42,279 nucleotides of DNA from a virus: positions 1 through 42,279 of the IMG/VR virus record IMGVR_UViG_3300003311_000002. One strand, given 5' to 3'. The position numbers and the translations under genes were made by a program. Shown here piece after piece: positions 2,833-25,927 of the stretch. Positions within the stretch are counted from its first letter, which is position 1, and each line of letters begins with the position of its first letter. The notes under the pieces were generated by a model. The model saw only the letters and a program-made list of their open reading frames with translations. It was not told where the DNA came from and did not search any database.

Positions 2833-2870
2833 TAAAAATACCCCACCGGTGATGGTGGGGAAAGGACAAT
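2833..2870 (-). promoter_or_regulatory. Late-promoter-like element ATTGTCCTTT-N20-TATTTTTA
   Basis: - strand reads ATTGTCCTTT CCCCACCATCACCGGTGGGG TATTTTTA, 14 nt upstream of the ATG at 2818. The spacer itself forms a ccccacc/ggtgggg hairpin. Confidence 0.5.
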
Positions 2871-2884
2871 AATATCAGGTAGAA

Positions 2885-3211
2885 TTACTTTGCTTCAAAC
2901 AACTGTTCTAAAATTTTATACTTGATAAAATTTGAATAGGGAGAATTTTCCAGGATAAAGGTTTTGAAAACCTCTGCTTCCTGATTTGTGAATGTTACCA
3001 GTGCATTCTTGTGGATAGACTCCGCTTTCGGCATGATGTCGAAATCAGGACTGAACAGGTAAAGCTTGTTGCCTAAATCTTTGTGAAGCGGCTTTTTAAG
3101 CTGTTTCTCAACCTTCTCACGGTAACAATTACCTTCCAGATCCTTCAGCTCTACTTTGGTAATATCAAAAGAAAAAGTTTTTTCTTTCTTGGTAGATTCC
3201 TTTTTTGCCAT
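2885..3211 (-). CDS. Hypothetical protein (108 aa)
   Basis: ATG-initiated ORF in the co-directional array. Its start overlaps the stop of the upstream ORF. Confidence 0.6.
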   Translation of the reverse strand: MAKKESTKKEKTFSFDITKVELKDLEGNCYREKVEKQLKKPLHKDLGNKLYLFSPDFDIMPKAESIHKNALVTFTNQEAEVFKTFILENSPYSNFIKYKILEQLFEAK

Positions 3212-3501
3212 TACGCTTCAGGGTTTAAAGATGAAACAATAGTAACAACAGCAGCTTCGATACCTGTTACCAATGGACCATACTGCTCATTTGGAATATT
3301 GAATGCCTGGATTCTATTCCACTTTGCAGTTTCCACATTGTAAGTGGCCGTAATGGTTTCGGTGTTGTTGTCTTTTATCCTTTGAGAATTCACCTCAATG
3401 GTTTCAGGTTTTTCACCTTCCTTGTGTTCAAAGGTGAATTTCACATCTACTCCGTTAATCGTTTTGATACCTTCGGTTTTAATTAAATTCGTGTATTCCA
3501 T
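3211..3501 (-). CDS. Hypothetical protein (96 aa)
   Basis: ATG-initiated ORF preceded by a late-promoter-like element. Confidence 0.6.
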   Translation of the reverse strand: MEYTNLIKTEGIKTINGVDVKFTFEHKEGEKPETIEVNSQRIKDNNTETITATYNVETAKWNRIQAFNIPNEQYGPLVTGIEAAVVTIVSSLNPEA

Positions 3502-3524
3502 TTTCGAAAATTTTGATTACAGCT

Positions 3525-3562
3525 TAAAACTATCTTATTGCCATATCCGGAGAAAGGACAAT
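3525..3562 (-). promoter_or_regulatory. Late-promoter-like element ATTGTCCTTT-N20-TAGTTTTA
   Basis: - strand reads ATTGTCCTTT CTCCGGATATGGCAATAAGA TAGTTTTA, 23 nt upstream of the ATG at 3501. Confidence 0.55.
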
Positions 3563-3564
3563 TA

Positions 3565-4086
3565 CTAAAGCGGTTCACCACCACTTTCAACCAAGAACGA
3601 AACACTATCCAGTAACACGTTTTTGAACAGGTGCTGAAACTCATAGACACTTGCATCATCATGGAAACCATTAATGAAGATTGTTCCGGTCTTCAGTACA
3701 CTGTAAAAAGCTTCGACAGTTAGATAACTTGAATGGAGTGAAGTCCAACTTCCTCCATTAATGCGATAGCGAACAAGGAATTGTCCATAGTTGTCAACAT
3801 TAACACCAGTAGCTGTGGCCGACCACTCATACATTCCTGTCTCTCCCAATTGGCCCACTGGATTGGTTAGCGTAAGATCTCCATCTTCAACCGTAGATCT
3901 GTAGCTATGATCGTAACCGAAAAATGAATCAGAATCGTATGGAACAACTTTATCAACCTGAACCGGTGATTGTGAATTGTTACAACGCCCGGGCAATTCT
4001 CCCAGATCTTTCTTTCCAGTTACAGTCCAGTTGACTTCCTGAGCTACCTGATCAGTACTTATTTTTCCACTAGTAGGTAATGCCAT
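3565..4086 (-). CDS. Hypothetical tail-fibre-associated protein (173 aa)
   Basis: Overlaps the 3' end of the tail fibre gene by 17 nt. Function assigned by position only. Confidence 0.6.
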   Translation of the reverse strand: MALPTSGKISTDQVAQEVNWTVTGKKDLGELPGRCNNSQSPVQVDKVVPYDSDSFFGYDHSYRSTVEDGDLTLTNPVGQLGETGMYEWSATATGVNVDNYGQFLVRYRINGGSWTSLHSSYLTVEAFYSVLKTGTIFINGFHDDASVYEFQHLFKNVLLDSVSFLVESGGEPL

Positions 4087-7000
4087 GCTTTTTCAGTTTA
4101 GATTTTAAATACTCCACTTCCTTTTTAAGTAGGGTTATCCTGGTATCATTTTGCAGAATACCGGCAGTGTTCTGAGCAATCATTTCAATGGTATTGATTC
4201 TCAATTTGCCATCCTTACGCTTGCTTACAAATTCCGGGAATACTTCTTGAATTTCCTGAGCGATAAAACCTCTATGCAAAATCTGTTCACCTTCCTTGTA
4301 ATAGAATGTCACCGGGCGTGTTTTACGAAGAGCTTTCAATGGATTGCCAATCGTTTTAATCCTTTTCTTCAACCTCTTATCGGAAGGTGTACCCCAGTGA
4401 ATGGCTCCATCTACATCAAGATCACCATAAACCTCTAGATTGACAGGATCAGGCAATGCATCTGTACCTACTCTTACTTTCTTTTGCTTACCCCAACATG
4501 CTAAGAGAGGATATTGAGCTCGGCCATCGTAAACGTAAAAATCTCGATATCGGGTTGTGTCTCCATTGTAACCATACCAATTAACAGATAAAGGCCTACT
4601 ATCGTCATCCCCATCCGTTCGATACAAATGCGCTCCATCGATTACAATATTACCGGCTCCCAATGTTTGTGAGTTACTGATAAACTTTCCGGATAATGTA
4701 ACATTGTTCCCCACTGCATTATCAAAGTTGATTTGTGCAGCAGTTAATTGATCAATGATATTTGCGGCTTTAACTTTTAAGGATTCGGCAATTACTGTTG
4801 TTGTTGCTATAACATTCTGAGAAATGGAAGTAACATTGGTATCAACATCATTTAAAGAGGGAGTCCAAGCTGTTGCTTTGTCTCCAATTTCAATTTTTAC
4901 GTTATTGATTTTAAAACCTTCATCGTTTAGTCCCAATCCAACTTTAGCAAACATGATACTGATATCTTCAGTAACAGGTGATATAAATGAAAAGGCATAC
5001 CTTTTATATTGGGTTGTACTCCCATCAATAAGAACTCCCGGTAGACTAACATTTCCAGAAGACTTCATTATATACATGTAATTTAAAGAAGAAGTACTAT
5101 ACATCGAGGCAGCATCGAAAGACACCATATATTTTACACCTTGCTTTGCCGCAAACCTTGGTGTTATTGCCCCGAAACCATTAGTGTATCCATACTTAAC
5201 TATTCTACGACCTTTATCTGCAGGTTCTGAAATAGTAGGACTACCCCATGTGCCCCATCCAGTAAAACCGTCAGAGAAATTTGAATTATCTAAAAGATTC
5301 TCTCCTCCAACTACGAGAGCATCAACCTTTGCTTGCGCTCCGGAAGTTGTTTCCACATTCTCAGTACCGATTACCTTCTCCCACGAGATCACAGCATTTT
5401 CACCCATTAAAATTTCATCGCCAACTTTCAATCCTAAAGTTGCAATGTATGGAGCTTTGATTTCGCGGTGAGTGATTGTAACGGCATCTGCTTCGGTAAT
5501 CTTCAAATCAGCCAAATTGTAAGCACTATCAGCTTTTGATTGTGCAGTACTGGCCACGGCAGTGGCAGCAGCTTCGGCAGCATCGGCTTTGTCTTGTGCT
5601 CCTGTTTGAGTCTCGGCATTACCACCAGTAACATGAATTTCACCAGATACACGAACATTCTCGAAGTAACCAAAATCTTTCACATACAAGCCTTTTTCCA
5701 TGTCACCAAAAACAGGCGAATGCATGTTCAGATACCCCAACTGAGCAATGATATTATTAAAGGTAGTATTGTGGTCATTCACACCTCCCAGTACTCGAAC
5801 AAAACCATTCAGACCATCAACAAACACAGAGGTTTGTCTGTCTGTATTGGTTTCATTTCCTTTTCTGGCCAACTGCATAAACTTGCGTGGAGATATTCCA
5901 TTTCGGGAATTCACAACAACCTGGTTGTTTTCCAGATCAACGGATACAACATCCAAATAACATGTTTGAAATCCAGTATCATGGTTGAATATCCCAATCA
6001 GTATATCATCCACTTCGAAGCTCACACCATCACCTTCTTCAATTTTCAGCGTTAGTGTGTATGGTCCTGTACCGGAAACATCTTGAATCAGTCCCGGATC
6101 AGTGAACCAAAATTGATTCCCGGCAACTCGCACCTGGTTCTTTATTAATTCCGGTGTGCGCAAAAATTCTCTAAGATCAAGAGATTTCATTTCGCCATGG
6201 CCAGACTGATTGATCTTAGCACCAACGCCACCAATAATACCAGGAGCAAAAGCAGAGGTAACAAAATTACGATGAACAATTGCATCGTACATTGTCCAAG
6301 TCTTTGTGGAAATATCAGAATTGTATTTGTTCCAATAATCGGCTGCGGCTATTCCTCCCAAATGATCAGAGTTGTTTGCCAAGTCTGCAAAACCGGCTTT
6401 TATTTTATCAGCTCCAACTTTCAGATAAAGCGAATCGTTTATCAATTCTTGCTTAGTCCAGTAGTTGACCGCTTCAAGATTGCCCAGGCGGTCAGCATTG
6501 GCCACCCAAACTTCACCATTATTCGACTCCAGATAATTACCATCTAAAGCAAGCGTATCGAGAAAAGCTTTATTGGCATGTTCGTGAAGATCTTCAACCA
6601 AAGCATAAGCAGACAAATCAACATGACTGCCTACTTCATCACCGGAAACAAATCCCATTGCAGCAACTTCGGAAAGAATGTTCGTGCGAATTGCTCCGTA
6701 ATTTGTCACTCCCCATTTCTCAGTAAAAGGAACCTGAACAGGAATCAACAATTGGCTGTTCAGGATTGCACTTGGAAACTCGCTAAGTCTGGGAGCTAAA
6801 AAAAAAAGTTCGGAGTCAGGATCTACGATTTGAACTTCGGTTGGTAACTCGTTTGCCCTGGATAAATTCAGGTATTTGGTTTGCCGAGAAAGAGCAAATT
6901 CAAAGTCATAATTATAGGTAGTGATATCACCCTGTACCGATTTGGCTTTTGGCTTACTAACAGTAATGGATTGATAACCGGTATCAGCGCAATAGTATCT

Positions 7001-7870
7001 TTTCAGAGAGTTGAAAAACTCCTGAGTCCAAACTTTATATCGATCATCAGGAAAGTAACCGGTATTCTTTTTAAAGTACTTCTCAAAATCCACATCGTAA
7101 TCCATGGTATCTTCATCGAACAAGGCCGACTCAATTTCAAAATCATTGATATCTTCCTTTTTCCCGGTGAAGCGGAAAGTGTCCAATCCTCCAAGAGAAT
7201 TATCAACTACGAATAAATCCTCATGTTCGAAATAGTCATTGAACAGCACGAAACGCTGAACAAATGCAAGCTGAGTGCCTACAGTATCCTCATTCCAAAT
7301 ATCGAAATATACAGGCTGCCCGGTAAACTTCCCGGATAGATATCCGAAGTTCATATTTAATGAATAAGTTTTCCCTGCAGGGAGAGAAGCGAGAGTAATT
7401 GTTTCCGGATCTTTATCCTTGAAATAAGCCTTCACCTTTACTACTGCGGTAACAACTGCATGATAGGATAACCATTCAGGATCGTTGAACTTTACGTTCT
7501 TTTGCTGTGGTTGCCAGGTAAGCCAATTGCCTTTCAAAAATACTTCCGGATCTGCATCAGCATCAACACCACCAAAAACCACTTTAGTAGGAACAGCAGT
7601 ACCTTCAACAATAAAATTGTAATTCTTAACAGCGTTGGTTTGCTCAAAAACGTCGGATGTGGGCAATTGCAGGGAAAGCAGCGATGGCAACAAGTCACGC
7701 AACCTGATGGTTATTTTATTATTCGCATCAGGTTGGTAAGTTTCTTCCAGAATGGTACTTCCTCCAACTTCCTGTATTTCGAAATTTATTTCAGTTGAAG
7801 AATCTACAATGATGTCTTTAATATTTCCTGACATTGCAATGCTGCTAGGCTTTGAAATTATTGTTGCCAT
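4070..7870 (-). CDS. Tail fibre / receptor-binding protein with C-terminal S74 intramolecular chaperone domain
   Basis: C-terminal SDKRLKK..I...PVTFYY...HRGFIAQEIQEVFPEFV fits the peptidase S74 auto-processing domain. A CBM-like segment (GENLLDNSNFSDGFTGW...) lies upstream of it. ATG at 7870 (track start 7876 is TTG). Confidence 0.8.
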   Translation of the reverse strand: MATIISKPSSIAMSGNIKDIIVDSSTEINFEIQEVGGSTILEETYQPDANNKITIRLRDLLPSLLSLQLPTSDVFEQTNAVKNYNFIVEGTAVPTKVVFGGVDADADPEVFLKGNWLTWQPQQKNVKFNDPEWLSYHAVVTAVVKVKAYFKDKDPETITLASLPAGKTYSLNMNFGYLSGKFTGQPVYFDIWNEDTVGTQLAFVQRFVLFNDYFEHEDLFVVDNSLGGLDTFRFTGKKEDINDFEIESALFDEDTMDYDVDFEKYFKKNTGYFPDDRYKVWTQEFFNSLKRYYCADTGYQSITVSKPKAKSVQGDITTYNYDFEFALSRQTKYLNLSRANELPTEVQIVDPDSELFFLAPRLSEFPSAILNSQLLIPVQVPFTEKWGVTNYGAIRTNILSEVAAMGFVSGDEVGSHVDLSAYALVEDLHEHANKAFLDTLALDGNYLESNNGEVWVANADRLGNLEAVNYWTKQELINDSLYLKVGADKIKAGFADLANNSDHLGGIAAADYWNKYNSDISTKTWTMYDAIVHRNFVTSAFAPGIIGGVGAKINQSGHGEMKSLDLREFLRTPELIKNQVRVAGNQFWFTDPGLIQDVSGTGPYTLTLKIEEGDGVSFEVDDILIGIFNHDTGFQTCYLDVVSVDLENNQVVVNSRNGISPRKFMQLARKGNETNTDRQTSVFVDGLNGFVRVLGGVNDHNTTFNNIIAQLGYLNMHSPVFGDMEKGLYVKDFGYFENVRVSGEIHVTGGNAETQTGAQDKADAAEAAATAVASTAQSKADSAYNLADLKITEADAVTITHREIKAPYIATLGLKVGDEILMGENAVISWEKVIGTENVETTSGAQAKVDALVVGGENLLDNSNFSDGFTGWGTWGSPTISEPADKGRRIVKYGYTNGFGAITPRFAAKQGVKYMVSFDAASMYSTSSLNYMYIMKSSGNVSLPGVLIDGSTTQYKRYAFSFISPVTEDISIMFAKVGLGLNDEGFKINNVKIEIGDKATAWTPSLNDVDTNVTSISQNVIATTTVIAESLKVKAANIIDQLTAAQINFDNAVGNNVTLSGKFISNSQTLGAGNIVIDGAHLYRTDGDDDSRPLSVNWYGYNGDTTRYRDFYVYDGRAQYPLLACWGKQKKVRVGTDALPDPVNLEVYGDLDVDGAIHWGTPSDKRLKKRIKTIGNPLKALRKTRPVTFYYKEGEQILHRGFIAQEIQEVFPEFVSKRKDGKLRINTIEMIAQNTAGILQNDTRITLLKKEVEYLKSKLKKHGITY

Positions 7871-7887
7871 ACTCAAATTGTTTTATT

Positions 7888-7925
7888 CAAATCTACAGTT
7901 GAAACACAGGTGAAGAAAGGACAAT
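7888..7925 (-). promoter_or_regulatory. Late-promoter-like element ATTGTCCTTT-N20-TAGATTTG
   Basis: - strand reads ATTGTCCTTT CTTCACCTGTGTTTCAACTG TAGATTTG, 17 nt upstream of the tail fibre ATG. Confidence 0.6.
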
Positions 7926-9697: not shown

Positions 9698-9700
9698 AGG

Positions 9701-13230: not shown

Positions 13231-13234
13231 ACCA

Positions 13235-13272
13235 TAAATAAAGGCAGACCTTGAGGGAAAGTAAAGGACAAA
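13235..13272 (-). promoter_or_regulatory. Late-promoter-like element TTTGTCCTTT-N20-TTTATTTA (weaker -7 box)
   Basis: - strand reads TTTGTCCTTT ACTTTCCCTCAAGGTCTGCC TTTATTTA, only 4 nt before the ATG at 13230. This implies a leaderless or near-leaderless mRNA. Confidence 0.45.
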
Positions 13273-13273
13273 G

Positions 13274-13299
13274 AAAAAGCCCTGGAGTTATTCCAGGGC
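13274..13299 (-). terminator. Intrinsic terminator after the 100-aa membrane protein gene
   Basis: gccctgga/tccagggc stem (13279..13299) followed on the - strand by UUUUU. The stop codon lies in the loop. Confidence 0.65.
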
Positions 13300-13590
13300 C
13301 TCTTTAAGGTAATTTAATCGTTTATTGATTTCGTTATTTATCCATGCCGGGACAGGATCTTTGAGTTGATTACATATCTCGAGATATTTCTCCAGTACTT
13401 CAGTTCTGAATTCTGAGGATATGAATTCTTTAACCCGAGCCTGATCAGCGTATAGTGGGTGAGGAAAATCTACATTGAAATTTAAATGAGCATCATCGTA
13501 TTTCTCGATTAAACGATTGTCTCGAGCTTTGGATACTTGCCAAATAATTAAGCAGATGATTCCTGTTGTTACTATTATTCCTAGTGTCAT
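13288..13590 (-). CDS. Single-pass membrane-anchored protein (100 aa), accessory
   Basis: N-terminal hydrophobic helix MTLGIIVTTGIICLIIW followed by a soluble domain, then its own terminator. Confidence 0.65.
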   Translation of the reverse strand: MTLGIIVTTGIICLIIWQVSKARDNRLIEKYDDAHLNFNVDFPHPLYADQARVKEFISSEFRTEVLEKYLEICNQLKDPVPAWINNEINKRLNYLKEALE

Positions 13591-13599
13591 AGGCTAAAA

Positions 13600-13875
13600 T
13601 TACAGCTTTTTAATCAACATCCATTTAAATGAAAATTTGAATTTACCCGGCTCTACACTACAGTTAAATCCTTCCTCTTTAAGTAGATCATAGATTTTCG
13701 ATTTATCGAGAGTTACTCCAGGATTTAATTCCTGGAGAGCTTCGAAAATTTCATTCGTACTTAAAAAATCAGTAGCCTGATCGATAGAGTTGGCCGGTTG
13801 ATAGTATTGCCCGAATACCTGTAAGGCTTCGTGCATAAATTGATCTGTATTTTGAGTATTATCTGGTTCGTTCAT
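13600..13875 (-). CDS. Hypothetical protein (91 aa)
   Basis: ATG ORF in the co-directional array. Confidence 0.55.
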   Translation of the reverse strand: MNEPDNTQNTDQFMHEALQVFGQYYQPANSIDQATDFLSTNEIFEALQELNPGVTLDKSKIYDLLKEEGFNCSVEPGKFKFSFKWMLIKKL

Positions 13876-13886
13876 GATTGGTGAAA

Positions 13887-14078
13887 TTAAGCATTTAATT
13901 CAATTGGTGTTTGTCCTTCAGAGGTAAAGTAATTCTTTGCTTTCATGTTTTGAAGCTTCGCCTTAGCACGCAATACACGTTGTCGACTAGCTTCCATTAG
14001 TGAGCGATACTGATTAAATTCCTCACGGTATGCTTCAACTAATTTTTCTTGATTCTCTATTTCCATTGCAGGTATCAT
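13887..14078 (-). CDS. Hypothetical coiled-coil protein (63 aa)
   Basis: ATG ORF. Its start overlaps the stop of the upstream gene by 4 nt. Confidence 0.5.
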   Translation of the reverse strand: MIPAMEIENQEKLVEAYREEFNQYRSLMEASRQRVLRAKAKLQNMKAKNYFTSEGQTPIELNA

Positions 14079-14653
14079 ACTTCACCTCCTTTCTCTAATA
14101 TGCGTTCATCAGCAATTTTAAAAGGGGAAAACTCTAATGCAGCACGTATTGTACATACTTCAACATCAGCAACAATTTTCTTTGCGAATATTCTGTTTTC
14201 AGCATATTCAATAGCCTTATGCATATCAGGAGCGGTAAGGAAGAGAGTGATCAGGTTGGAGTCACACTTAAAATCGAAAACAAAATTATCTCCTGGTAAC
14301 CACACTTCAATTTTAGGTTCGTAGCTGAGCCATTGTATTCCTTCTGGTGTATCCGAATGATAATCCAACTCAACACTCACTTCATACATAGACGAAGTCG
14401 ATGGTTTAGCAAAATTACAGGCTTCAATAAAATTATCTTCTGGAATCCTACCTTTACCAAAACAGTAATGGGCGATTACAGAACTCCACGGAAAAATCAA
14501 TTCTTCAGAAATATGCACTTTGTATATTTCTATTTCTCCTTTGCCTACAACTTCAATATTGTAAACCTCTTGAAGTTTTTCGGATATGGTATCCGATTGC
14601 AGGGCATGATGATAATATCTGCCCTCATTGTGTAAAATCACAAATGATTTCAT
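14075..14653 (-). CDS. Hypothetical protein (192 aa), accessory
   Basis: ATG ORF with no structural-protein features recognised. Confidence 0.6.
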   Translation of the reverse strand: MKSFVILHNEGRYYHHALQSDTISEKLQEVYNIEVVGKGEIEIYKVHISEELIFPWSSVIAHYCFGKGRIPEDNFIEACNFAKPSTSSMYEVSVELDYHSDTPEGIQWLSYEPKIEVWLPGDNFVFDFKCDSNLITLFLTAPDMHKAIEYAENRIFAKKIVADVEVCTIRAALEFSPFKIADERILEKGGEV

Positions 14654-14681
14654 AATTTTATAACGTTTTTAATTAAACATG

Positions 14682-14730
14682 TCCCCTGCGATGGTGTTGG
14701 CGCACCGCTTGAGCAGGGGATTTTTATTTA
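14682..14730. terminator. Hairpin terminator next to the HTH gene stop
   Basis: tcccctgc...gcagggga stem with inner ggtg/cacc pairing. T-run tttttattta on the + side and an A-run on the - side, so probably bidirectional. Confidence 0.5.
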
Positions 14731-14731
14731 C

Positions 14732-14920
14732 TCATCTTTTCGGCTTAAGTTTTTCCCAAACAAATATCATTGCTTTAGCCCAAGCCGGCAGTTCTTTATT
14801 TGGTTGAGTCATGGACTTTACCGAATCTGTTTTCAAGCCAGTGATATCAGCTATTGAAGCATTGGTAAGTCCTAACTCTTTTTTCATTTCTTTATATTTC
14901 TTGTGGTCACTCATAGTCAT
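14732..14920 (-). CDS. Small Xre-type helix-turn-helix protein (62 aa)
   Basis: LGLTNASIADITGLKTDSVKSM looks like an HTH. It has its own canonical promoter and a terminator. Confidence 0.6.
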   Translation of the reverse strand: MTMSDHKKYKEMKKELGLTNASIADITGLKTDSVKSMTQPNKELPAWAKAMIFVWEKLKPKR

Positions 14921-14940
14921 GTTTTATTCTTAGATATCAA

Positions 14941-14971
14941 CAAAGGTAAACTATATTTTACTTTGTGCAAA
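14941..14971 (-). promoter_or_regulatory. Canonical Bacteroidota sigma-A-type promoter TTTG-N19-TACCTTTG
   Basis: - strand reads TTTG CACAAAGTAAAATATAGTT TACCTTTG, about 20 nt upstream of the ATG at 14920. A degenerate duplicate of the unit (TACCTTTT) is at 14974..14981. Confidence 0.55.
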
Positions 14972-15020
14972 TAAAAAGGTAAATTATTTTTTACTTTTAT
15001 TATGAGATAGCAGTAAAAAG

Positions 15021-15048
15021 AAACCCTAACCAATAAGGCTAGGGTTTT
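15021..15048. terminator. Bidirectional hairpin terminator downstream of the lipoprotein gene
   Basis: aaaccctaacc/ggctagggttt stem with one mismatch, flanked by A- and T-runs. Confidence 0.55.
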
Positions 15049-15137
15049 AAAATTTTATTTGAAATTCTGTATTGGTTTAGAGTATTGATTTAAATTTTAA
15101 ACACTTACGTAATTACAGAAAAATTACAAAAGTAATT

Positions 15138-15632: not shown

Positions 15633-15683
15633 ACTTGGCGACTTTTATTAAAAATGAATTCTAAAATTAAGAAGACTTACCTA

Positions 15684-16232
15684 CTATACAAAATCAAAAC
15701 CTTCTTTACGGAAAGTCATGGTCCAACCAACTGATCCGTTTAGCTCTCGTGCTACAAAAGGGGAGATATCGTGATTATCGGAAAGATCTTTTAACCAAGG
15801 ATGTTGCTTTTGATTATCGATTAGGTTTTTACGAATTCGAAGTAAATAATCAAGAGTGATATCAGATAGGAGTACTTGATCGGCAATGTCATGATTATCT
15901 GAATTAATTGGAATTGCAACCGTAGCTGCAATATACATTCCTGTAGGCCTACGATTATAGCCATCAACTTCACTATTGATGTCTCCATAATCAATAAACA
16001 GATAGTATGAATTGAAATTGCTGATGTATTTTTTTATAATGTCTTCGTTAACTCCAAACAGGAAGTGCTTAATTTCTGGGATTAACGAATGCTCTTGCAA
16101 GTTTTGAATAGTTGTTTTAAAAGGTCCATAACCACTTAATTCCGAAGTTCCTTTATTGAAAGCTGCTTCAACTCCTAGTTTATCCGGGAATTTCGCAAAG
16201 AGCTTGAAAATATCTTGCATTATATTGCTCAT
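15684..16232 (-). CDS. Hypothetical virion protein (182 aa)
   Basis: ATG ORF with a 4-nt overlap with the upstream gene. Confidence 0.6.
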   Translation of the reverse strand: MSNIMQDIFKLFAKFPDKLGVEAAFNKGTSELSGYGPFKTTIQNLQEHSLIPEIKHFLFGVNEDIIKKYISNFNSYYLFIDYGDINSEVDGYNRRPTGMYIAATVAIPINSDNHDIADQVLLSDITLDYLLRIRKNLIDNQKQHPWLKDLSDNHDISPFVARELNGSVGWTMTFRKEGFDFV

Positions 16233-19657: not shown

Positions 19658-19661
19658 AATA

Positions 19662-19973
19662 TTAGTCGTTTAGCCATTCAATCTTTCTCATTATGAACTC
19701 CGGAGGGAATGCAACGAATCTCCATAGTATTCGGTAGCATGTCTTCGGGTTCCCGTCCGGATCCTGGAAACAGAAGTAGTTGTCACTGCCTACAGCGAAT
19801 ACTTCTTGTGGTAACTGTGATCTGGTTTTACATCCTTCACGCACCTCGAGGCTATCTGAAGCTTTCCCCTTGGTCCGGTTGTAAGGATAAAAGGCAACAG
19901 TAAAGCATCCATCCGGAACCTTTGATACTTCCTGTGCCAGTCTTATTGCATCTAATCCATTGATTGTTTCCAT
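19662..19973 (-). CDS. Hypothetical protein (103 aa)
   Basis: ATG ORF immediately after a late-promoter-like element. Confidence 0.6.
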   Translation of the reverse strand: METINGLDAIRLAQEVSKVPDGCFTVAFYPYNRTKGKASDSLEVREGCKTRSQLPQEVFAVGSDNYFCFQDPDGNPKTCYRILWRFVAFPPEFIMRKIEWLND

Positions 19974-19977
19974 ATAT

Positions 19978-20015
19978 CAAACCTACTTTATTGACCTACC
20001 CGAACAAAGGACAGG
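19978..20015 (-). promoter_or_regulatory. Late-promoter-like element CCTGTCCTTT-N20-TAGGTTTG
   Basis: - strand reads CCTGTCCTTT GTTCGGGTAGGTCAATAAAG TAGGTTTG, 4 nt before the ATG at 19973. Confidence 0.6.
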
Positions 20016-20332
20016 AGGTAATGCAATGCACACACCACATGTAGATGTTTTCTTTCATTATTAATATTCCTCTCTGCATTTCAAATTTCATTTGCGAATA
20101 TCCTGAAACGCCCGTGTTTACTGGGCTTCCTCATATTTCCAGTAATTTATGATTAATTGCAGTGCATTTTGGAAATTTAGCGTGGCGTGCCCTAAATCGT
20201 CGTTCGTTCAGAAAATTGAATGAATTTTGATAAATTGAACATTGAAAATCAATGTTTTATATGTCGTTTCGTTATCAAATCGCTCAATTATTATCCTTTT
20301 TGCACCATTTTTTCACCTTTTTACAGCACTTT

Positions 20333-22087
20333 TTAAGTGATTGAGTTTTCTAATAATTGCGGCTTTTTGCTTAGCTCTTTTGGTAAGATCTTATTGAATT
20401 TTGAAAAGATTAAATACATCAAAGCCGAGGGGATTTGAGTTGATAAACCGGCCTGAAATCTCCAATCTAATTTTACCTCACTCGATTTATCCAGGTCTAT
20501 TTTGCCATCAACCTTGAGGAGAGGAGAGAGGAAAATTGCAGATATCAAGTTTGGACACTCATTTTCGCAGATTTTCAAGCGAATAACGTGACGAAGATTT
20601 TCGGCCAGTATCATTCCAATGAGTTTGTAATGCTCATATAAAAAGATGGTCCTTTGTTTTTCGTTTTTGAGTTTTACCTTGAATCCGTATGATTCCAATT
20701 CACGTTTTAGAATCCTGGCATCGGTTGTGATCTTGTCTTCTTCAACCTTTTTCTTATTCCCGGCACGGTCGTAATACAGATTGATTTTCTTGTTTTTGAA
20801 ATGAGCTCCAAAGAACTCAAAAAACTCTTTGGCCAGATCACCTTGGTTTTTAGGTTCCCAACAATAAAACTCTTTTAAAACTCTGTACTCGTTGTTTTTA
20901 CGGTTTTCCTGACCGACAACAAAAGACTGGAAGTTTCCAGGATCGTATCCGATATCAAGTGGTTTGTTTGGATCGAAGTACTTTAAATATTGAGCATCAA
21001 GCTTGAACGTATCTTTTAAATCGAAGCTTAGAATTGAATCGTAGATGTAACTGTCAGAAAAGCAATGCTGTGTTTTATTAAAGCCGGCAAAAAACATATT
21101 AGCCACTTTCTTTCTACGGATGGCACAAATGGCAACTAGAAATTCCTCCATTGTCATTGTGTTGAGCATGGTGGTGAAAAATTTCTGGCCAAGAAAATCT
21201 TTGTTCACGAAACTGGAGGCACGAAGATAGTATGAAGCACCTTGTCGCATGTGGCGAAGGATTGGGTTCCAAATGTCCAAAACATGTTTATGCTTCTTTA
21301 TTTCTTCAGCAATTTTGAGACGTACATAAACATCTTTCTCTTTCTTCAGCTGAGCTTCACGTTTAATTAGTTTGTAGTTGTTGTCGTTCACGTGTTTGGC
21401 AACGGTGAATATTTCCGATATCAGTTTTTTATCCATGTTATCTTCATATTCCTCGAACCAGTTGTCTTCGCCCAGGTCGACTCGAGCTGTATCTGAAACA
21501 CCGGTGATTCCTTGATAGTATGGACTCTGACGAGTTTTACCTTTAGCTCCACGCAAAGCAGGGAATAGTCTGGATTTCAGCTTTTCACCTTTGTTGTGTT
21601 TCATTTCCTCGACAAAGGCATGAACACCTGAAGAACCGGCAACGGAATCGGGTTGATCTGAACTTACTAACTGGAGGTGGTGTCCGGATCGGAGCAACAA
21701 ACTGTGCTTTGGATATGATATTGGTCGAATTGGTTTATTGAAATGCTTTGGAATTTTTGAGGCTCCAATGATATAATCCTCACCTTCTTTCATGAATGGT
21801 TCATCATTCGGACCCATAGGTTTGTTGAAGAACGCACGAAGGTTAGGAATAATGTTTGTCATTAATGCCACATAGGTTTTGTGGGTAAGGAATGACAATT
21901 CGCCAGGCATGTCGAATCCGACCTTTACAATACGAGGTCCGAATATCCCTTCGGTTTTACCACCGGCACGAGCCATTTCTGCAATGAGAACATTGGGATC
22001 AATATAAGCAGCTTTGATCTGAGCTTTGTTCATGTAATAGTCTGTCATTGCAGCAGCACTATTATCATCTTTTAAAATATTACTCAT
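20333..22087 (-). CDS. terL: Terminase large subunit
   Basis: Walker A-like MARAGGKTEG and Walker B-like HAFVEEM. About 584 aa. ATG at 22087 overlaps the upstream gene. Confidence 0.7.
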   Translation of the reverse strand: MSNILKDDNSAAAMTDYYMNKAQIKAAYIDPNVLIAEMARAGGKTEGIFGPRIVKVGFDMPGELSFLTHKTYVALMTNIIPNLRAFFNKPMGPNDEPFMKEGEDYIIGASKIPKHFNKPIRPISYPKHSLLLRSGHHLQLVSSDQPDSVAGSSGVHAFVEEMKHNKGEKLKSRLFPALRGAKGKTRQSPYYQGITGVSDTARVDLGEDNWFEEYEDNMDKKLISEIFTVAKHVNDNNYKLIKREAQLKKEKDVYVRLKIAEEIKKHKHVLDIWNPILRHMRQGASYYLRASSFVNKDFLGQKFFTTMLNTMTMEEFLVAICAIRRKKVANMFFAGFNKTQHCFSDSYIYDSILSFDLKDTFKLDAQYLKYFDPNKPLDIGYDPGNFQSFVVGQENRKNNEYRVLKEFYCWEPKNQGDLAKEFFEFFGAHFKNKKINLYYDRAGNKKKVEEDKITTDARILKRELESYGFKVKLKNEKQRTIFLYEHYKLIGMILAENLRHVIRLKICENECPNLISAIFLSPLLKVDGKIDLDKSSEVKLDWRFQAGLSTQIPSALMYLIFSKFNKILPKELSKKPQLLENSIT

Positions 22088-22724
22088 TTTCAATTTCCTC
22101 AAATTTCACATCCTGGATATCTGCATCACGACGTAAGCGTTCTTTATCTTCCTTATCAACTGGCAAGTTGTTGATGAGATTGAGGTAAAAACCTTGATTG
22201 TATTTGTTGGCGATTTTCTTCAGGTTCTCTTTTTCGAATCCCATATCATCATGAGTTAATGTGTTGGAGATAATGAACACCGGTCCTTTCTGATCACGTG
22301 CTTCAGCTTCCTCATTTGCTCGTTTTTTCAGCTCATTTGCATCCATATAACAATTGCGAGCTTCACGAATATTGTTTGTGGCCACAGCCAATTTTGCAAG
22401 GTCCTCGAGCTTATTTGCCGTGTCACGATCCCAAACATGTTGAGCAATCTGTTCATCGACATCGAAGTACTGGAGAGCATCTCCGATTCTTTTTTTTGCA
22501 GTTGCAATGGAGATGCGAATTTTCTGTGTAAACATTACTCGTTCCTTCAGCATTTTGGCCGCACGATTCATGTTTCTTTCATTTTCCCAAACTTCCATTG
22601 CCCACTGCATTTGCATGATGAACAATTGCATTTCTTCAGGGATGGCCAATGATTGACCTGTATCGAGAAAATCGTTTACTATATCCGGATGGAGAGAGCT
22701 TAATTTTTCAATCTGTGTTGTCAT
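22080..22724 (-). CDS. Putative terminase small subunit (positional)
   Basis: 214-aa acidic/helical protein directly upstream of terL and overlapping it. Confidence 0.4.
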   Translation of the reverse strand: MTTQIEKLSSLHPDIVNDFLDTGQSLAIPEEMQLFIMQMQWAMEVWENERNMNRAAKMLKERVMFTQKIRISIATAKKRIGDALQYFDVDEQIAQHVWDRDTANKLEDLAKLAVATNNIREARNCYMDANELKKRANEEAEARDQKGPVFIISNTLTHDDMGFEKENLKKIANKYNQGFYLNLINNLPVDKEDKERLRRDADIQDVKFEEIENE

Positions 22725-23029
22725 ATTCCAAAGAGTTTCTTTTTCAGGTCATCAATTCGTCGGTTTCCTTGTCTCTCATTCAATTGAATGATTGACATGA
22801 TATCACCTGTTTCGGCTTTCTTTGCCAACTCAGCATCGATGTTGTATTCTCCAATTTCCCAACCTTGATGATAGTATGTGTATATCTGAGATTGAGGATT
22901 GTTTATCTCCAGTAAGAACTCTGTTTTCTCATCCCCAGTGAGAGCCAGGAGAGTGACAATTTTTTCCGGAGCATATTTCAATGCCCCGAAGTTTCGAATT
23001 TTGCTAAGTGTTTGAAGGTCTACTTTCAT
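22721..23029 (-). CDS. Hypothetical protein (102 aa)
   Basis: ATG ORF with 4-nt overlaps on both sides. Confidence 0.6.
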   Translation of the reverse strand: MKVDLQTLSKIRNFGALKYAPEKIVTLLALTGDEKTEFLLEINNPQSQIYTYYHQGWEIGEYNIDAELAKKAETGDIMSIIQLNERQGNRRIDDLKKKLFGI

Positions 23030-24315
23030 AACAGTTGATCTTTGATTTCTTCGAATGGGATCCTTTCTCCATTTCGAATCAGTGTTATTTCTATATCAGG
23101 GAAAGCAGCATGAAAGCGACGTACTTCAACATCGGCATAGCGTTGGTCTTTTTCCATGCCGTAACAAATGCGATTGGTTTGCTGACATGCCATAAGAGTT
23201 GCTCCGGATCCCAGGAACAAATCCACAACTAAATCCTGTTCTCGACTGCTGTTTTGAATTGGATATGCCATTAAAGCAACCGGCTTCATGGTTGGGTGCA
23301 GATCGTTACGAATTGGTCGATCGAAGTTCCATACAGTTGATTGCTTTCTATCACCATGCCAGTAATGTGGACCTGTAGGTTTCCATCCGTACAATACCGG
23401 CTCATGTTGCCAGTGGTAATCCTGACGTCCCATGATGAAAGCTTGCTTCACCCAAATACAGCACTGAGCTAATTTGAACTGAGCATCAACCATTGCCTTT
23501 CGGAAGTTTGCACCTTCATTGTCGGAATGGAAAATATAAATGCCGGCACCATCTTCCAGGATTCGATATGAATTGCAATAGAAGTGATAAAGGAACTGGT
23601 AAAAGCTGTTATTGTCCATACTATCATTTTGTATGGTAAGTTTGTCTTTTGTCTTTCCTTCGTATGCAACATTGTATGGAGGATCGGTTACCATGAGTTT
23701 GGCCTTTTTCCCTTCCATGAGAGCGACAATATCTTTAGGCTCTATACTATCTCCACACATGATGCGATGTGGCTCTAAAAGCCAAATGTCACCGGTTTGA
23801 GTAAATGTTTCTTTTCTTACTTCAGGAGCATCATCCTCAATGATTTCAAATTCTTCTTTCATTAAGGTTTCCCGGTCCCGATCGTAATCCAGGGTAACCG
23901 GTTCGAATCCCATATTGAAACGTTCGAGCATATCGGTTCCAATGTTGTATTTCTTGAATAGGATGGTGTCCGGATTCTTTTCGGCAAACTCAGAATTATA
24001 AGCTGCAATTTCTTCAACGGCCTCCTGTTTTGTTTTGGCGTGGATTGGTTCGTAAGGAATATCAGGAACAATGAATCCGGATTTGATTAAAGCCTTCAAT
24101 GCCTTTTTGCGTTGGTGAGCATCGATTATCCATAATTTGCCGTCCGGATCTCTCCAGGCTTTGAATGCATACTTGAATCCTCTGGTGAGAATTAGCATTT
24201 GCAGTTTCATGTTTTTATCCGGATCAGAGATCTTAAAGTCTTCCTGCAGCTCATGAAAAGAATTGATTGGAGCTGTGGGTAAATTTCCAAGGTTGTAAAC
24301 TGTTATTTCTTGCAT
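23026..24315 (-). CDS. ParB-like N-terminal domain fused to an N6/N4 DNA methyltransferase
   Basis: IIDAHQRKKAL (ParB DGHHR-like motif). Motif IV VTDPPYN followed by motif I FLGSGAT, the beta-class order. Confidence 0.8.
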   Translation of the reverse strand: MQEITVYNLGNLPTAPINSFHELQEDFKISDPDKNMKLQMLILTRGFKYAFKAWRDPDGKLWIIDAHQRKKALKALIKSGFIVPDIPYEPIHAKTKQEAVEEIAAYNSEFAEKNPDTILFKKYNIGTDMLERFNMGFEPVTLDYDRDRETLMKEEFEIIEDDAPEVRKETFTQTGDIWLLEPHRIMCGDSIEPKDIVALMEGKKAKLMVTDPPYNVAYEGKTKDKLTIQNDSMDNNSFYQFLYHFYCNSYRILEDGAGIYIFHSDNEGANFRKAMVDAQFKLAQCCIWVKQAFIMGRQDYHWQHEPVLYGWKPTGPHYWHGDRKQSTVWNFDRPIRNDLHPTMKPVALMAYPIQNSSREQDLVVDLFLGSGATLMACQQTNRICYGMEKDQRYADVEVRRFHAAFPDIEITLIRNGERIPFEEIKDQLL

Positions 24316-24719
24316 GAGAGTACTTCTTTAAAAACGGTTGCACGTTCCTGGTGTTTATTCAGGTTTTCACGGTCTTTTTTCTTTTGGTTGACTGTTCGCT
24401 TGTTGCTGTTGAGATAACTATTGTATCGCTTGATATTATCTCTGCAGTTGGCATATTCATCCATAAACTCATCAGGCTTATCTTGTAGCATTTGCTCCAA
24501 TTGACGACGTAGTGAATGATGGATGATTAACGGATGCTTGAAAAGGAATTTGCCATTATCATTTAAAGACTTGAGTTCATCGAATGCCTGTAAATTACGA
24601 ATGCGGAGTTCGGCCAACTTTGTCACCTTTGCTTTTGTGGGTGAGTTGTCGATCTCCGCATCGAGAGCTTTCATATCACGATAGCAGTTAATTCTATCGT
24701 TATAAAGAATGGTAGCCAT
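24303..24719 (-). CDS. Hypothetical protein (about 138 aa)
   Basis: ATG at 24719 (track start 24734 is TTG). Confidence 0.55.
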   Translation of the reverse strand: MATILYNDRINCYRDMKALDAEIDNSPTKAKVTKLAELRIRNLQAFDELKSLNDNGKFLFKHPLIIHHSLRRQLEQMLQDKPDEFMDEYANCRDNIKRYNSYLNSNKRTVNQKKKDRENLNKHQERATVFKEVLSCKK

Positions 24720-24784
24720 TTGCACATCCGGCAATTCAAGGCGATTCCATTTGATGTTAGGATATTCCTCTTCTTTTTGGTGAT

Positions 24785-25786
24785 TTAGCTTTTTTTTTGC
24801 CCACCTGCAGCAGCCAACAACTCATCCTGCTTTTTCTTCAGTACTGGAGTAATTGTATCGGCTTTTTTATCTGGTAAACCTTCATCAAGGTTAAGAGCAA
24901 AGAGAATACTTACTTTCTCGTTGTAACCAAGCTTAGAGAGATCAGCTTTCATCAGGTCGTTTTCAGCCTGCAGCTTTTCTTTTTCCTCTTCGGTTTCCTC
25001 GAGCTTTTCTTCAAGTTCCTCCTTCTCCGATTCAGACTCACCAAGCTGATCCTCTAAATCGGATACTTCACCTTCTTTTTGCTCGATGTTTTCAGCTTGT
25101 TCCTGGATAGTTTTCTCCTTCGCTTCCAGTTCCTCTTTTTGCTCCTGGATTAAATCAGCAGCTTCGGTGTTTTTGTCCGGAGCAGGGGTTGCATTATCCA
25201 TCTTTTCACAAATAGATTTAGGCAGCTTCAGCATGGTTTTCTGCATTTCTTCAGGAAAATCCTTAACCATTTCAGTAATTTCATCCATGATTACTTTTCT
25301 AGCTTCAGGCGTAGGAGTTTTGTGGAGTAATGCTGCTTTTTTTGCGGATTGACGAACGATGTGTTTCCCCTTCCATTTTTTGATCAATTCAAATCTGAAT
25401 TCCTCAATTTCTCCAGGTAAATATTTTTGAATATCATCAGGTATAGTAGGAAGTAATCCGGAAATAGCTGCTGCAGCTTTTTCTCTTGCTGCATCATCAC
25501 CATCAACTCCAAATGCGGAGAAGTGTTCTTTAATACGATTTACTGTAATACCAAATTCTTCGAGAGGATTGCGTGAGATTGCTCGACGATTATCGACAAT
25601 TTCTTTTTCAGAATCAACATGATCAATTAAGGCACGAAGTACTTCGTTAGCAAAACGATCACCTTTTGAAGTGGATTTTAGAACAGAATGTTCCGGAGCT
25701 TTTTTCTTGAGAAGATCGATATCCTTCTCGACGTGTTGTGGAGCCTTCAAATTATTGTAGGCCGCCAATTTCTGCTTTAGATTCAT
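24785..25786 (-). CDS. Acidic coiled-coil protein (333 aa), possibly scaffold-like
   Basis: Very Glu-rich heptad-like region (EELEAKEKTIQEQAENIEQKEGE...). Preceded by a late-promoter-like element. Confidence 0.6.
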   Translation of the reverse strand: MNLKQKLAAYNNLKAPQHVEKDIDLLKKKAPEHSVLKSTSKGDRFANEVLRALIDHVDSEKEIVDNRRAISRNPLEEFGITVNRIKEHFSAFGVDGDDAAREKAAAAISGLLPTIPDDIQKYLPGEIEEFRFELIKKWKGKHIVRQSAKKAALLHKTPTPEARKVIMDEITEMVKDFPEEMQKTMLKLPKSICEKMDNATPAPDKNTEAADLIQEQKEELEAKEKTIQEQAENIEQKEGEVSDLEDQLGESESEKEELEEKLEETEEEKEKLQAENDLMKADLSKLGYNEKVSILFALNLDEGLPDKKADTITPVLKKKQDELLAAAGGQKKS

Positions 25787-25815
25787 TCGATGTAATTTTT
25801 TGATTATTACTTAAT

Positions 25816-25853
25816 CAAATGTATTTGCAATGCAGAATCTTATAAAGGACATA
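25816..25853 (-). promoter_or_regulatory. Late-promoter-like element TATGTCCTTT-N20-TACATTTG
   Basis: - strand reads TATGTCCTTT ATAAGATTCTGCATTGCAAA TACATTTG, 29 nt upstream of the ATG at 25786 and directly after a terminator hairpin. Confidence 0.6.
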
Positions 25854-25862
25854 GAATGTAAA

Positions 25863-25892
25863 AGAGGATGCTCAAACCACTAAGCATCCTCT
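25863..25892 (-). terminator. Intrinsic terminator after the 334-aa gene
   Basis: agaggatgct/agcatcctct 10-bp stem followed on the - strand by UUUUAC. Confidence 0.65.
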
Positions 25893-25927
25893 CCACTTTA
25901 CTAACCTAAAATTTAACCACTACTACA

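Follow-up and report, generated by a model that had tools for sequence, protein, structure and literature searches.

In the middle promoters of phage T4, a phage-specific, asymmetric box of about 8–9 bp (the MotA box) takes the place of the host upstream element, its distance to a host-type downstream element is fixed, and it is used by the host primary-sigma holoenzyme together with phage proteins made earlier (MotA/AsiA). In phages Mu (Mor/C) and P2/P4 (Ogr/Delta), several late promoters with poor upstream elements respond to one small phage activator, whose gene is located just before or among the late genes. These activators belong to known HTH or zinc-finger families; their sites are dyad-symmetric and centred further upstream than the box reported below, at about −30 to −55 for C/Mor and at about −55 for Ogr. 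In Bacteroidota, the canonical sigma-ABfr promoter carries TTTG at −33 and TAnnTTTG at −7, the latter element spanning positions −12 to −5 (PMC6847099). We found no published description of the late promoter class reported below; the P. gingivalis phage description that we consulted makes no mention of promoters.

We analysed a 42,279-nucleotide stretch of DNA (IMG/VR record IMGVR_UViG_3300003311_000002; hereafter the window), which is a complete prophage with a duplicated tRNA-Pro on either flank. Genome architecture and homologues of a 172-aa protein link it to the Nixviridae (Dewhirstvirus 017a) and Helgolandviridae (Leef_1), and its large terminase and capsid protein are 54% and 39% identical, respectively, to those of P. 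gingivalis phage 017a. However, the window phage has no close relative among deposited phages, as megablast gave no hit.

The octamer TGTCCTTT occurs seven times in the window, compared with 2.4 expected copies, and none of 100 shuffled sequences contained seven or more. Six copies are on the − strand (5' base at 2868, 3560, 7923, 13270, 20013 and 25851), all of them intergenic. Exactly 20 nt separate each copy from a −7-like box downstream, which is a perfect TAnnTTTG at three sites, TAnnTTTA at two and TTTATTTA at one, and the next ATG lies 4–29 nt past this box. The original prediction had described these six elements with the same spacing and the same distances to the ATG, and the enrichment bears it out. 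Its count of six was too low: of two additional copies that it had called weak, the one at about 30070 on the − strand (AGTCCTTT-N20-TTACTTGC) is retained in relatives before the head protease gene. The other, at 31302 on the + strand, has a spacing of 21 nt, is located in a field of iterons and is not kept in the close relative L006, and for these reasons is probably a chance occurrence. The seventh TGTCCTTT copy (35542, + strand) is found within the 994-aa primase ORF in antisense orientation and is probably also due to chance. A search for the composite pattern with at most two mismatches gave seven matches in the window versus 0.93 expected, a number reached in 0 of 100 shuffles; one match (40927, + strand) lacks TGTCCTTT. 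Judged from its sequence, the prophage thus has seven genuine predicted late sites on the coding (−) strand, the six TGTCCTTT copies and AGTCCTTT at 30070. Their consensus is (T/A)GTCCTTT; a Bacteroidota −7 box follows after exactly 20 nt, and all seven are intergenic. These sites and their neighbouring elements are as follows.

30063..30070, − strand: late box L1, AGTCCTTT, the predicted first late promoter, before the head protease, capsid and 334-aa block
30035..30042, − strand: −7-like box of L1, TTACTTGC, 20 nt past the late box
30010..30038, − strand: perfect 12-bp inverted repeat, TTGCATGATATA-N5-TATATCATGCAA, covering both the −7 box of L1 and the ATG of the protease gene (z = −3.1)
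25860..25894, − strand: terminator-like hairpin and T-run, immediately 5' of L2
25844..25851, − strand: late box L2, TGTCCTTT, with −7 box TACATTTG at 25816..25823
20006..20013, − strand: late box L3, TGTCCTTT, with −7 box TAGGTTTG at 19978..19985, heading the portal block
14941..14971, − strand: canonical host-type promoter, TTTG-N19-TACCTTTG, predicted to drive an accessory block between the head and tail modules
13274..13304, − strand: terminator-like hairpin and T-run, abutting L4
13263..13270, − strand: late box L4, TGTCCTTT, with −7-like box TTTATTTA at 13235..13242
7916..7923, − strand: late box L5, TGTCCTTT, with −7 box TAGATTTG at 7888..7895
3553..3560, − strand: late box L6, TGTCCTTT, with −7 box TAGTTTTA at 3525..3532, heading 96-aa and 108-aa ORFs
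2861..2868, − strand: late box L7, TGTCCTTT, with −7 box TATTTTTA at 2833..2840

L1 is found in all relatives at the same place, after ORF2 and before the protease gene, and its −7-like box is identical in the relative L005/L006, the spacer having diverged. At the position matching the inverted repeat, relatives have an inverted repeat of other sequence; a leader hairpin and an operator are both candidate roles for it. L2 heads the block that runs from an acidic 333-aa ORF through a methyltransferase to the large terminase, and is kept in L003 and L005. L3 retains its octamer, spacing and box unchanged in L001–L005 with a variable spacer. L4 heads a 138-aa ORF and the tape-measure block, and L5 the 1268-aa tail fibre gene (ATG at 7870). 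For L3 and L4 the predicted +1 coincides with the A of the start codon (ATG at 19973 and 13230, respectively), so that leaderless mRNAs are predicted. L7 heads the terminal block (a 64-aa ORF, one with DUF5675 and a 202-aa ORF), which the original prediction had labelled a lysis cassette; only DUF5675 and PHROGs of unknown function were matched there, and no lysis function was identified. The canonical promoter, already recognized in the original prediction, was confirmed; a terminator (15047..15021) lies upstream of it, and it served as our comparison for late-box geometry.

Terminator-like hairpins directly precede the sites at 13270 and 25851, and the spacer of L7 (2841..2860) is itself a GC hairpin followed by a T-run. 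Terminators 5' of, or inside, several sites could indicate that a Q-like antiterminator loads at the box, or that the box acts in RNA as a processing or antitermination signal; lambdoid Q proteins, too, engage RNA polymerase at a DNA site within the late promoter. However, the prophage contains seven separate promoter-like units and not a single promoter followed by a terminator, and the seven sites show no common RNA structure (z from −3.1 to +1.4) and unconserved spacers. Moreover, since the box is upstream of the predicted start, it would not be part of its own promoter's transcript, which argues against an RNA signal. We consider this explanation very unlikely.

To define the element across genomes, a logo was built from 38 non-redundant sites in 13 genomes, the sole criterion of selection being GTCCTTT in an intergenic region on the coding strand. 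With N20 exactly, it reads T31 A32 n n T33 T38 T23 G20/A12, the spacer holds no information content, and position 1 is T, A or C and never G. The spacing is rigid: TA..TT was found at N20 in 25 of 48 sites and at most twice at any other spacing from 10 to 30, one clade having N19 instead of N20 at its first site. The predicted +1 is an A in 29 of the 38 sites. In 11 of them the ATG begins exactly 4 nt past the box, which would make +1 the A of the AUG of a leaderless mRNA and is expected only if the box positions the transcription start.

With the −7 box placed at −12 to −5, GTCCTTT falls at −39 to −33 (the octamer at about −40 to −33), in place of the host TTTG. The late sites resemble the canonical sigma-ABfr promoter in three respects: they carry its downstream box, this box is placed as in host promoters with respect to the ATG and the predicted +1, and 19 nt separate TTT(N) from the −7 box. 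They differ in that the G of TTTG is not conserved (A14 C7 G5 T12), in an invariant GTCC directly upstream, and in being confined to late-gene intergenic regions of one phage lineage. Because only the TTT of the host −33 element is kept and the −7 boxes are often imperfect, host holoenzyme alone is expected to perform poorly at these promoters. Nevertheless, the host −33 element of F. johnsoniae promoters is reportedly weak, so that at some sites a good −7 box might suffice without an activator.

The perfect host −7 boxes at several sites, together with a host polymerase that does not strictly require a −33 element, would also suit an operator, at which a repressor silences otherwise constitutive late promoters in the lysogen. 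We regard this as very unlikely. The box is short, asymmetric and single-copy and occupies the very position expected for binding of sigma region 4, degenerate −7 boxes are common among the late sites, no gene in the lysogeny orientation co-varies with the box, and the region of the cI-like gene has different repeats (CAACAGTAA).

Conservation was followed in IMG/VR contigs, about 30 Bacteroidales prophages, three P. gingivalis Nixviridae genera and the Polaribacter phage Leef_1. Every relative examined carries GTCCTTT-N19/20-TAnnTT(T/C)G at equivalent positions, and the range of the module includes Bacteroidales prophages of the gut and mouth as well as a marine phage of Flavobacteriia. In Nixviridae and Helgolandviridae the same late boxes precede the protease, portal, neck/tape-measure and tail blocks. 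In a phylogenetic footprint of relatives about 80% identical in amino-acid sequence, spacers and flanks differ, but the octamer, the box and the 20-nt distance between them do not. Conservation in related prophages, proposed as a check in the original prediction, was thus observed, and it strongly supports the claim that the late genes employ an upstream element other than that of the host, with constant spacing to a host-type −7 box. Such an arrangement implies a phage-directed change of promoter specificity. Sites are almost all on the coding strand, past the early genes, and 45 of 48 coding-strand GTCCTTT copies are intergenic. In protein-anchored scans, 21 IMG/VR clusters had 19 sites downstream on the same strand versus none downstream on the opposite strand and one upstream; the 30 genome prophages had 35 downstream on the same strand versus 3, 3 and 2. 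In P. gingivalis Alisviridae and Ludisviridae phages, used as same-host controls, we found neither the 172-aa family nor GTCCTTT followed by a −7 box.

Three phage ORFs were considered in connection with the factor that reads the box.

39766..40311, − strand: LuxR/GerE-type early regulator, not universal among motif-bearing phages
30562..31080, − strand: 172-aa ORF (A2 family), a basic protein (pI 9.3) and the proposed late-promoter activator
30071..30448, − strand: ORF2, 125 aa, weakly conserved and found in synteny with the 172-aa gene, with a stop codon that abuts L1

The original prediction had named both the LuxR-type and the 172-aa ORFs as candidates, and our results point to the second. 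Binding of the box by the LuxR-type protein is suggested by its early gene and by an HTH related to sigma region 4 (GerE, E = 1e-11; Sigma70_r4_2, E = 0.005), and homologues are present in L007, L009, L010, L013 and Leef_1. However, no homologue was found in three complete Nixviridae genomes by blastp, Pfam or maximum-sensitivity profile searches of stop-to-stop ORFs, and these genomes have four perfect sites each. In the alignment, the HTH part is missing from the L010 copy, yet L010 keeps its sites. GerE regulators usually bind dyad-symmetric sites, unlike the asymmetric box. This candidate is therefore very unlikely.

The A2 gene, in contrast, was found in all genomes that carry the motif, where it invariably lies two genes upstream of the first site in a fixed order: primase, gap, A2, ORF2, first box, protease. 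In motif-scan stretches that also encode A2, the ORF is on the motif strand in nine of nine. Of the proteins that the window shares with the distant relative L007, A2 is the best conserved (46% identity, versus 23–33% for the others), and A2 and ORF2 are the only pre-late proteins common to the window and phage 017a. The family (291 clusters) has no known members outside Bacteroidota and their phages, and all its genome matches with a named organism are Bacteroidota. The predicted structure (pLDDT 88.5) consists of an N-terminal alpha/beta domain and three long C-terminal helices. As this fold has no recognizable DNA-binding domain and the family has no relative in PDB (nor in Pfam or PHROG), it is synteny and co-occurrence that point to A2, and the co-occurrence is confounded by common descent of the entire phage backbone. 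ORF2 may be a co-factor, and the real factor could be the weakly conserved ORF2 or an undetected small protein.

A sigma-like identity, put forward in the original prediction, received no support for the 172-aa protein, which resembles sigma factors neither in sequence nor in predicted fold. The −7 box is that of the host primary sigma, and an activator or a sigma-appropriation-type mechanism fits better. Taken as a whole, the earlier interpretation is partly supported.

The late promoters could also be real and read by a host factor (an alternative sigma, an activator or RNA polymerase itself), the 172-aa protein having another function. A conserved host reader would explain why GTCCTTT stays invariant while A2 proteins diverge to below 20–30% identity in hosts of two Bacteroidota classes, and the A2 fold, without a known DNA-binding module, is consistent with it. 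However, the two control families of P. gingivalis phages share the host species and lack such promoters, the −7 box is of neither ECF nor sigma-54 type, a prophage relying on host factors alone would need another silencing route, and the motif tracks A2 in at least 50 independent loci. A host reader thus appears unlikely.

We read the seven elements as a new, activator-dependent class of late promoter, and consider it fairly likely that this is so with the 172-aa protein, possibly together with ORF2, as the best candidate activator. Such a promoter would often begin with a T-rich stretch or terminator tail, followed by (T/A)GTCCTTT, an unconserved 20-nt spacer and the −7 box, and transcription would start at an A, so that the mRNA would be leaderless or have a short, A-rich leader. 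Most likely, GTCC(TTT) at −33 would be read by a phage protein produced ahead of the late genes, which would recruit or re-tool the sigma-A holoenzyme in a class II or sigma-appropriation-like mode. Terminators just 5' of several boxes would divide the late region into separately started units, which could tolerate insertions of accessory genes with their own canonical promoters.

By analogy with MotA/AsiA, two adjacent small genes precede the regulon. Unlike in T4, the 172-aa protein has no sequence or fold similarity to MotA or AsiA, the Bacteroidota host uses −33/−7 promoters and a sigma without region 1.1, and the box retains the TTT of the host −33 element; the proposed regulon comprises late (morphogenesis) genes of temperate siphophages and not middle genes of a lytic myophage. 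Compared with the Mu and P2/P4 systems, the box is a 7–8 bp asymmetric element at −33, and the 172-aa protein has no known domain. Collectively, the box appears to form the upstream half of a dedicated late promoter common to a large, little-studied group of Bacteroidota phages. If this is true, late-gene control in gut, oral and marine Bacteroidota phages becomes testable.

The 42,279-nt window contains seven copies of the octamer TGTCCTTT, compared with 2.4 expected, and none of 100 shuffles reached seven. Six copies lie on the - strand, all intergenic (at 2868, 3560, 7923, 13270, 20013 and 25851), and a Bacteroidota -7-like box follows exactly 20 nt after each of them, as first noted. The + strand copy at 35542, antisense within the 994-aa primase ORF, is probably there by chance; chance is excluded as the source of the late-box pattern. 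Two further copies had been put forward as weak. The one at 30070 is a real seventh site (AGTCCTTT-N20-TTACTTGC), whereas the + strand copy at 31302, which lies inside the iteron field with a 21-nt spacing and is not kept in the related contig L006, is not a site. The late sites (box GTCCTTT) and the genes that they precede, in transcription order, are as follows.

Late sites of the window
L1, box 30070, - strand: protease, capsid
L2, box 25851, - strand: acidic ORF, methyltransferase, large terminase
L3, box 20013, - strand: portal block
L4, box 13270, - strand: tape-measure block
L5, box 7923, - strand: tail fibre
L6, box 3560, - strand: two small ORFs
L7, box 2868, - strand: terminal block, putatively for lysis (64-aa ORF, DUF5675 ORF, 202-aa ORF)

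A terminator-like hairpin lies directly against L2 and another against L4. A second short motif, TGCATTGCA, stands beside two of the boxes, at about 20020..20030 (upstream of L3) and at 25826..25834 (in the L2 spacer), and is conserved in the close relatives L001-L005.

The window has identical copies of tRNA-Pro(TGG) at both ends (2..77 and 42204..42279) and is therefore a complete prophage with tRNA-Pro as its integration site. All genes except the integrase are on the - strand, with transcription setting out at about 40.9 kb, in a divergent control region, and passing through the early genes (LuxR/GerE-type ORF, HNH ORF, 994-aa primase-like ORF) and a 450-nt iteron-rich gap to the 172-aa ORF, the 125-aa ORF (ORF2) and the morphogenetic genes. 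A megablast search with 25 kb of the window against deposited phages gave no match.

Other features of the prophage
318..1556: integrase
13288..15137: accessory, moron-like block between the head and tail modules
15047..15021: the accessory block's own terminator
14941..14971: the accessory block's canonical promoter, TTTG-N19-TACCTTTG
31190..31640, - strand: AT-rich gap without coding sequence that separates the primase block from the 172-aa gene and is dense in CAATTACAAAA and TGTAATT repeats, both direct and inverted
40890..40960, - strand: early control region between divergent cI-like and cro-like genes, with three ACAACAGTAA(A/T)A repeats

The gap is probably a replication origin, with the repeats as iterons; relatives have a non-coding gap at the same place, where the Porphyromonas gingivalis phages carry TGTTGGAC three times. 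The region equivalent to the accessory block holds HicAB, an amidoligase and anti-CRISPR candidates in the P. gingivalis phages. The repeats of the early control region are candidate operators.

To describe the promoter, a logo was built from 38 non-redundant sites, taken on the sole criterion of GTCCTTT in intergenic DNA of the coding strand. Position 1 is T in 25, A in nine and C in four sites and never G; the spacer carries no information, and at exactly N20 a -7 box emerges (T31 A32 n n T33 T38 T23 G20/A12), followed by an A-rich stretch. Of 48 sites, 25 have TA..TT at N20, and no other spacing between 10 and 30 accounts for more than two; the Bacteroides/Mediterranea clade has N19 at its first site. 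Because the Bacteroidota -7 element spans -12..-5 (PMC6847099), the box would lie at about -40..-33, which also sets the predicted +1. This position is A in 29 of the 38 sites, and in 11, L3 and L4 among them, an ATG sits exactly on it, a constraint with no easy explanation other than that the box positions a transcription start. Both counts are consistent with a predicted start about 5 nt past the -7 box, and the 11 sites would give rise to leaderless mRNAs.

The TTT of the box aligns with that of the host -33 TTTG, with a 19-nt spacing to the -7 box. The fourth position of the host element is not conserved in the late boxes (A14 C7 G5 T12), while the upstream GTCC is invariant. The late genes appear to use an upstream element other than the host TTTG, as had been proposed; the canonical TTTG-N19 arrangement is seen in the window at 14941..14971. 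Of a Bacteroidota primary-sigma promoter, the late sites possess the -7 element TAnnTTTG at -12..-5 and lack the -33 TTTG about 19 nt before it, TTT alone being present within GTCCTTT. Our best reading is that these sites form a class of late promoters that depend on an activator and have GTCCTTT where a primary-sigma promoter has its -33 element. A rival reading takes the box as a repressor operator.

Conservation of motif and spacing in homologous phages, on which the original prediction had staked itself, was found in the relatives examined, at N20 or, in one clade, N19. In five IMG/VR relatives (portal about 80% identical), octamer, 20-nt spacing and box are kept at orthologous positions while spacers and upstream DNA diverge. 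Using the 172-aa ORF as an anchor, we fetched the contexts of increasingly distant relatives. All share the order primase, non-coding gap, 172-aa homologue, ~140-aa ORF and S49/ClpP protease, and in all of them nGTCCTTT-N20-TAnnTTnn stands directly ahead of the protease gene and recurs at other late intergenic positions. Weak tblastn matches led to the Nixviridae of P. gingivalis, of which three genera were examined. Phages 017a, 032a and 025a each encode a member of A2, the family of the 172-aa ORF (hmmsearch E 2e-11 to 3e-7), and in each of them the boxes number exactly four, one apiece ahead of the protease and of the portal, neck/tape-measure and tail blocks. Polaribacter phage Leef_1 shows the same synteny and has six TGTCCTTT copies, all on the coding strand, intergenic and ahead of late blocks. 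In Leef_1, a near-identical terminator hairpin (AAAACCACTCT..AGAGTGGTTTTTTTA) at 2440..2476, 30600..30639 and 34555..34591 is joined to TGTCCTTT at each of three late junctions, so that terminator and promoter recur together as a cassette.

In 13 genomes (379 kb), the coding strand has 48 copies of GTCCTTT, of which 45 are intergenic, compared with 20 scattered copies on the opposite strand. An exact scan of IMG/VR for TGTCCTTT-N20-TAnnTTTG returned at least 120 matches, with two or more on the same strand in at least 22 stretches; at least nine stretches also encode an A2 member, always on the motif strand among the matches listed. One contig, IMGVR_UViG_3300017772_000165, carries GTCCTTT 35 times on a single strand over 9.7 kb, probably a tandem repeat without relation to the promoter. 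In a protein-anchored test, most sites lay downstream on the same strand.

Sites in the protein-anchored test
21 IMG/VR clusters: downstream, same strand 19; downstream, opposite strand 0; upstream, same strand 1; upstream, opposite strand 0
30 genome prophages: downstream, same strand 35; downstream, opposite strand 3; upstream, same strand 3; upstream, opposite strand 2

For most of the IMG/VR clusters and genome loci that appeared to be without a site, the first site proved to have a TAAnnTTG box or N19 spacing. Every named hit among the 34 genome loci is from Bacteroidota, including Odoribacter, Butyricimonas, Bacteroides, Mediterranea, Prolixibacteraceae, Marinifilaceae and Draconibacterium. 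A portal-based scan of GTDB genomes found nothing.

The first late promoter, ahead of the protease, is the only one with an inverted repeat across the -7 box or leader, often including the ATG (30010..30038 in the window). It recurs at equivalent positions in the related contigs L007, L011, L012, L015, L017, L018 and L150-L175 and is kept in every relative with a different sequence each time; its role may be that of an operator or of a translational hairpin. We rejected the L1 palindrome as a cI operator, as the window holds no further copy and the repeats of the early control region differ. The Bacteroides/Mediterranea clade has a conserved AATAGGTATTA in the first-promoter leader.

A word-indexed search recovered 80 clusters of the A2 family and exhaustive HMMER 291 representative clusters; of the family alignments A1-A3, A3 was too divergent for a locus scan. 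Members are stand-alone proteins of ~155-190 aa in which a C-terminal KKxDYR motif is conserved; their genes lie in Bacteroidota siphophages, between the replication module and the head protease gene. A2 is present in every motif-bearing genome examined. Between the window and L007, A2 is 46% identical, compared with 23-33% for other shared proteins, and A2 and ORF2 are the sole pre-late proteins common to the window and phage 017a. A homologue search with ORF2 returned three close relatives only. The 172-aa protein is basic (pI 9.3), and its gene lies upstream of the first late box, not under its control. Searches of Pfam, PHROGs and PDB sequences found no relative, and Foldseek against the PDB no neighbour (best E-value 1.2), using a model with pLDDT 88.5; a first AlphaFold model from nine sequences (pLDDT 54) was discarded. 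Structurally, the predicted fold has one neighbour only, a protein of Leef_1 that is itself uncharacterised. Since the protein has neither a sequence relative nor a structural neighbour in the PDB, its DNA- or polymerase-binding role is inferred. A near-match to the site, AGTCTTTT-N20-TATCTTAG, precedes the ATG of the 172-aa gene; autoregulation was rejected as a general feature because this sequence is kept in the closest relative only.

The invariance of the box would also fit a conserved host component as its reader, a plausible alternative against which the same-host controls speak. The Alisviridae and Ludisviridae phages of P. gingivalis have neither A2 nor any GTCCTTT followed by a -7 box, and the joint absence of protein and motif in phages of the same host supports a lineage-specific, phage-encoded reader. 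Two such factors had been named at the outset. Of these, the 172-aa ORF is the better candidate, being universal with the motif. The LuxR-type ORF, a rival reader of the box, is disfavored by its phyletic pattern: the three complete Nixviridae genomes, with four sites each, contain no homologue, and hence a GerE-type regulator is not found wherever the site occurs. Several relatives do encode homologues.

LuxR-type homologues
L007, 1155..1721
L009, 5433..5966
L013, 3751..4326
L021 (Leef_1), 19714..20301

This early protein, which belongs to PHROG 10300 and is also present in Cellulophaga and Microcystis phages, fuses a conserved cysteine-rich N-terminal domain (C..FG.LD..PD, CPG.G..C) to a GerE HTH; the copy in the related contig L010 is without the HTH part.

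We also compared the late sites with known systems. A phage sigma-like factor, as first suggested, is not supported: sigma region 2 was found in none of the window ORFs scanned, the LuxR-type ORF gave a sub-threshold region-4 match alone (E = 0.005), and the downstream element is the primary-sigma -7 box. The sites do not fit promoters of an alternative or ECF sigma encoded by the phage. Nor do they resemble the Mu Mor/C or P2 Ogr type, whose activators have dyad-symmetric sites upstream of -30, as the late box is asymmetric and its flanks show no conserved dyad in the logo; Mor/C (HTH) or Ogr (zinc-finger) Pfam domains were absent from the early and middle proteins scanned. In lambda Q-type control, one late promoter with a terminator behind it gives one antiterminated transcript of the whole late region. 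Here there are separate promoter-like units, seven in the window and four to six in relatives, several directly preceded by terminators. These multiple units argue against the rival of Q-like antitermination or an RNA signal, as do the position of the box upstream of +1 and the lack of a fold common to the seven window sites in RNA structure comparison. An Rfam scan of the window matched the flanking tRNAs only.

The design resembles that of T4 MotA/AsiA, where the upstream element gives way to a phage-specific box set at a fixed distance from a host-type downstream element; in the late promoter, GTCCTTT, at a predicted -39..-33, keeps a rigid N20 to the host -7 box (N19 in one clade). MotA-family proteins combine an N-terminal sigma-binding domain with a double-wing DNA-binding domain and have AsiA as co-activator. 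The A2 family, ORF2 and the eight other early ORFs scanned gave no Pfam match to a MotA or AsiA family, and the likeness to T4 MotA-box middle promoters and to class II activation is one of design only. The late-promoter class belongs to none of the families compared. We give roughly even chances to the A2 family being a new transcription activator, with a fold not in solved structures, that reprograms the unusual Bacteroidota primary-sigma holoenzyme through an invariant GTCCTTT replacing -33 recognition.

Phage-specific late promoters with a phage activator are a classical concept, and transcription initiation in Bacteroidota is atypical. To our knowledge, almost nothing is known of late-gene timing in temperate Bacteroidota phages. 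A literature search on the motif and on Bacteroidota phage late promoters returned primer coincidences only, promoters go unmentioned in the P. gingivalis phage paper, and we came across no account of either the motif or the A2 family. Novelty appears to lie in the element and its conservation across the phylum, in the leaderless architecture and in the candidate factor.

Altogether, the analysis provides a precise conserved cis-element, predicted starts, many of them leaderless, and one named candidate protein family, for which Leef_1, P. gingivalis lysogens and B. heparinolyticus DSM 23917 offer cultured test systems. For annotation, the motif is a strong marker of late operon boundaries and of prophages of this lineage that look active. 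If the proposed role of A2 is true, box and activator could give a tight, ready-made orthogonal expression switch for Bacteroides engineering, and the sites would constitute a phylum-wide phage late-gene regulon, extending from gut Bacteroides and oral Porphyromonas to marine Flavobacteriia.
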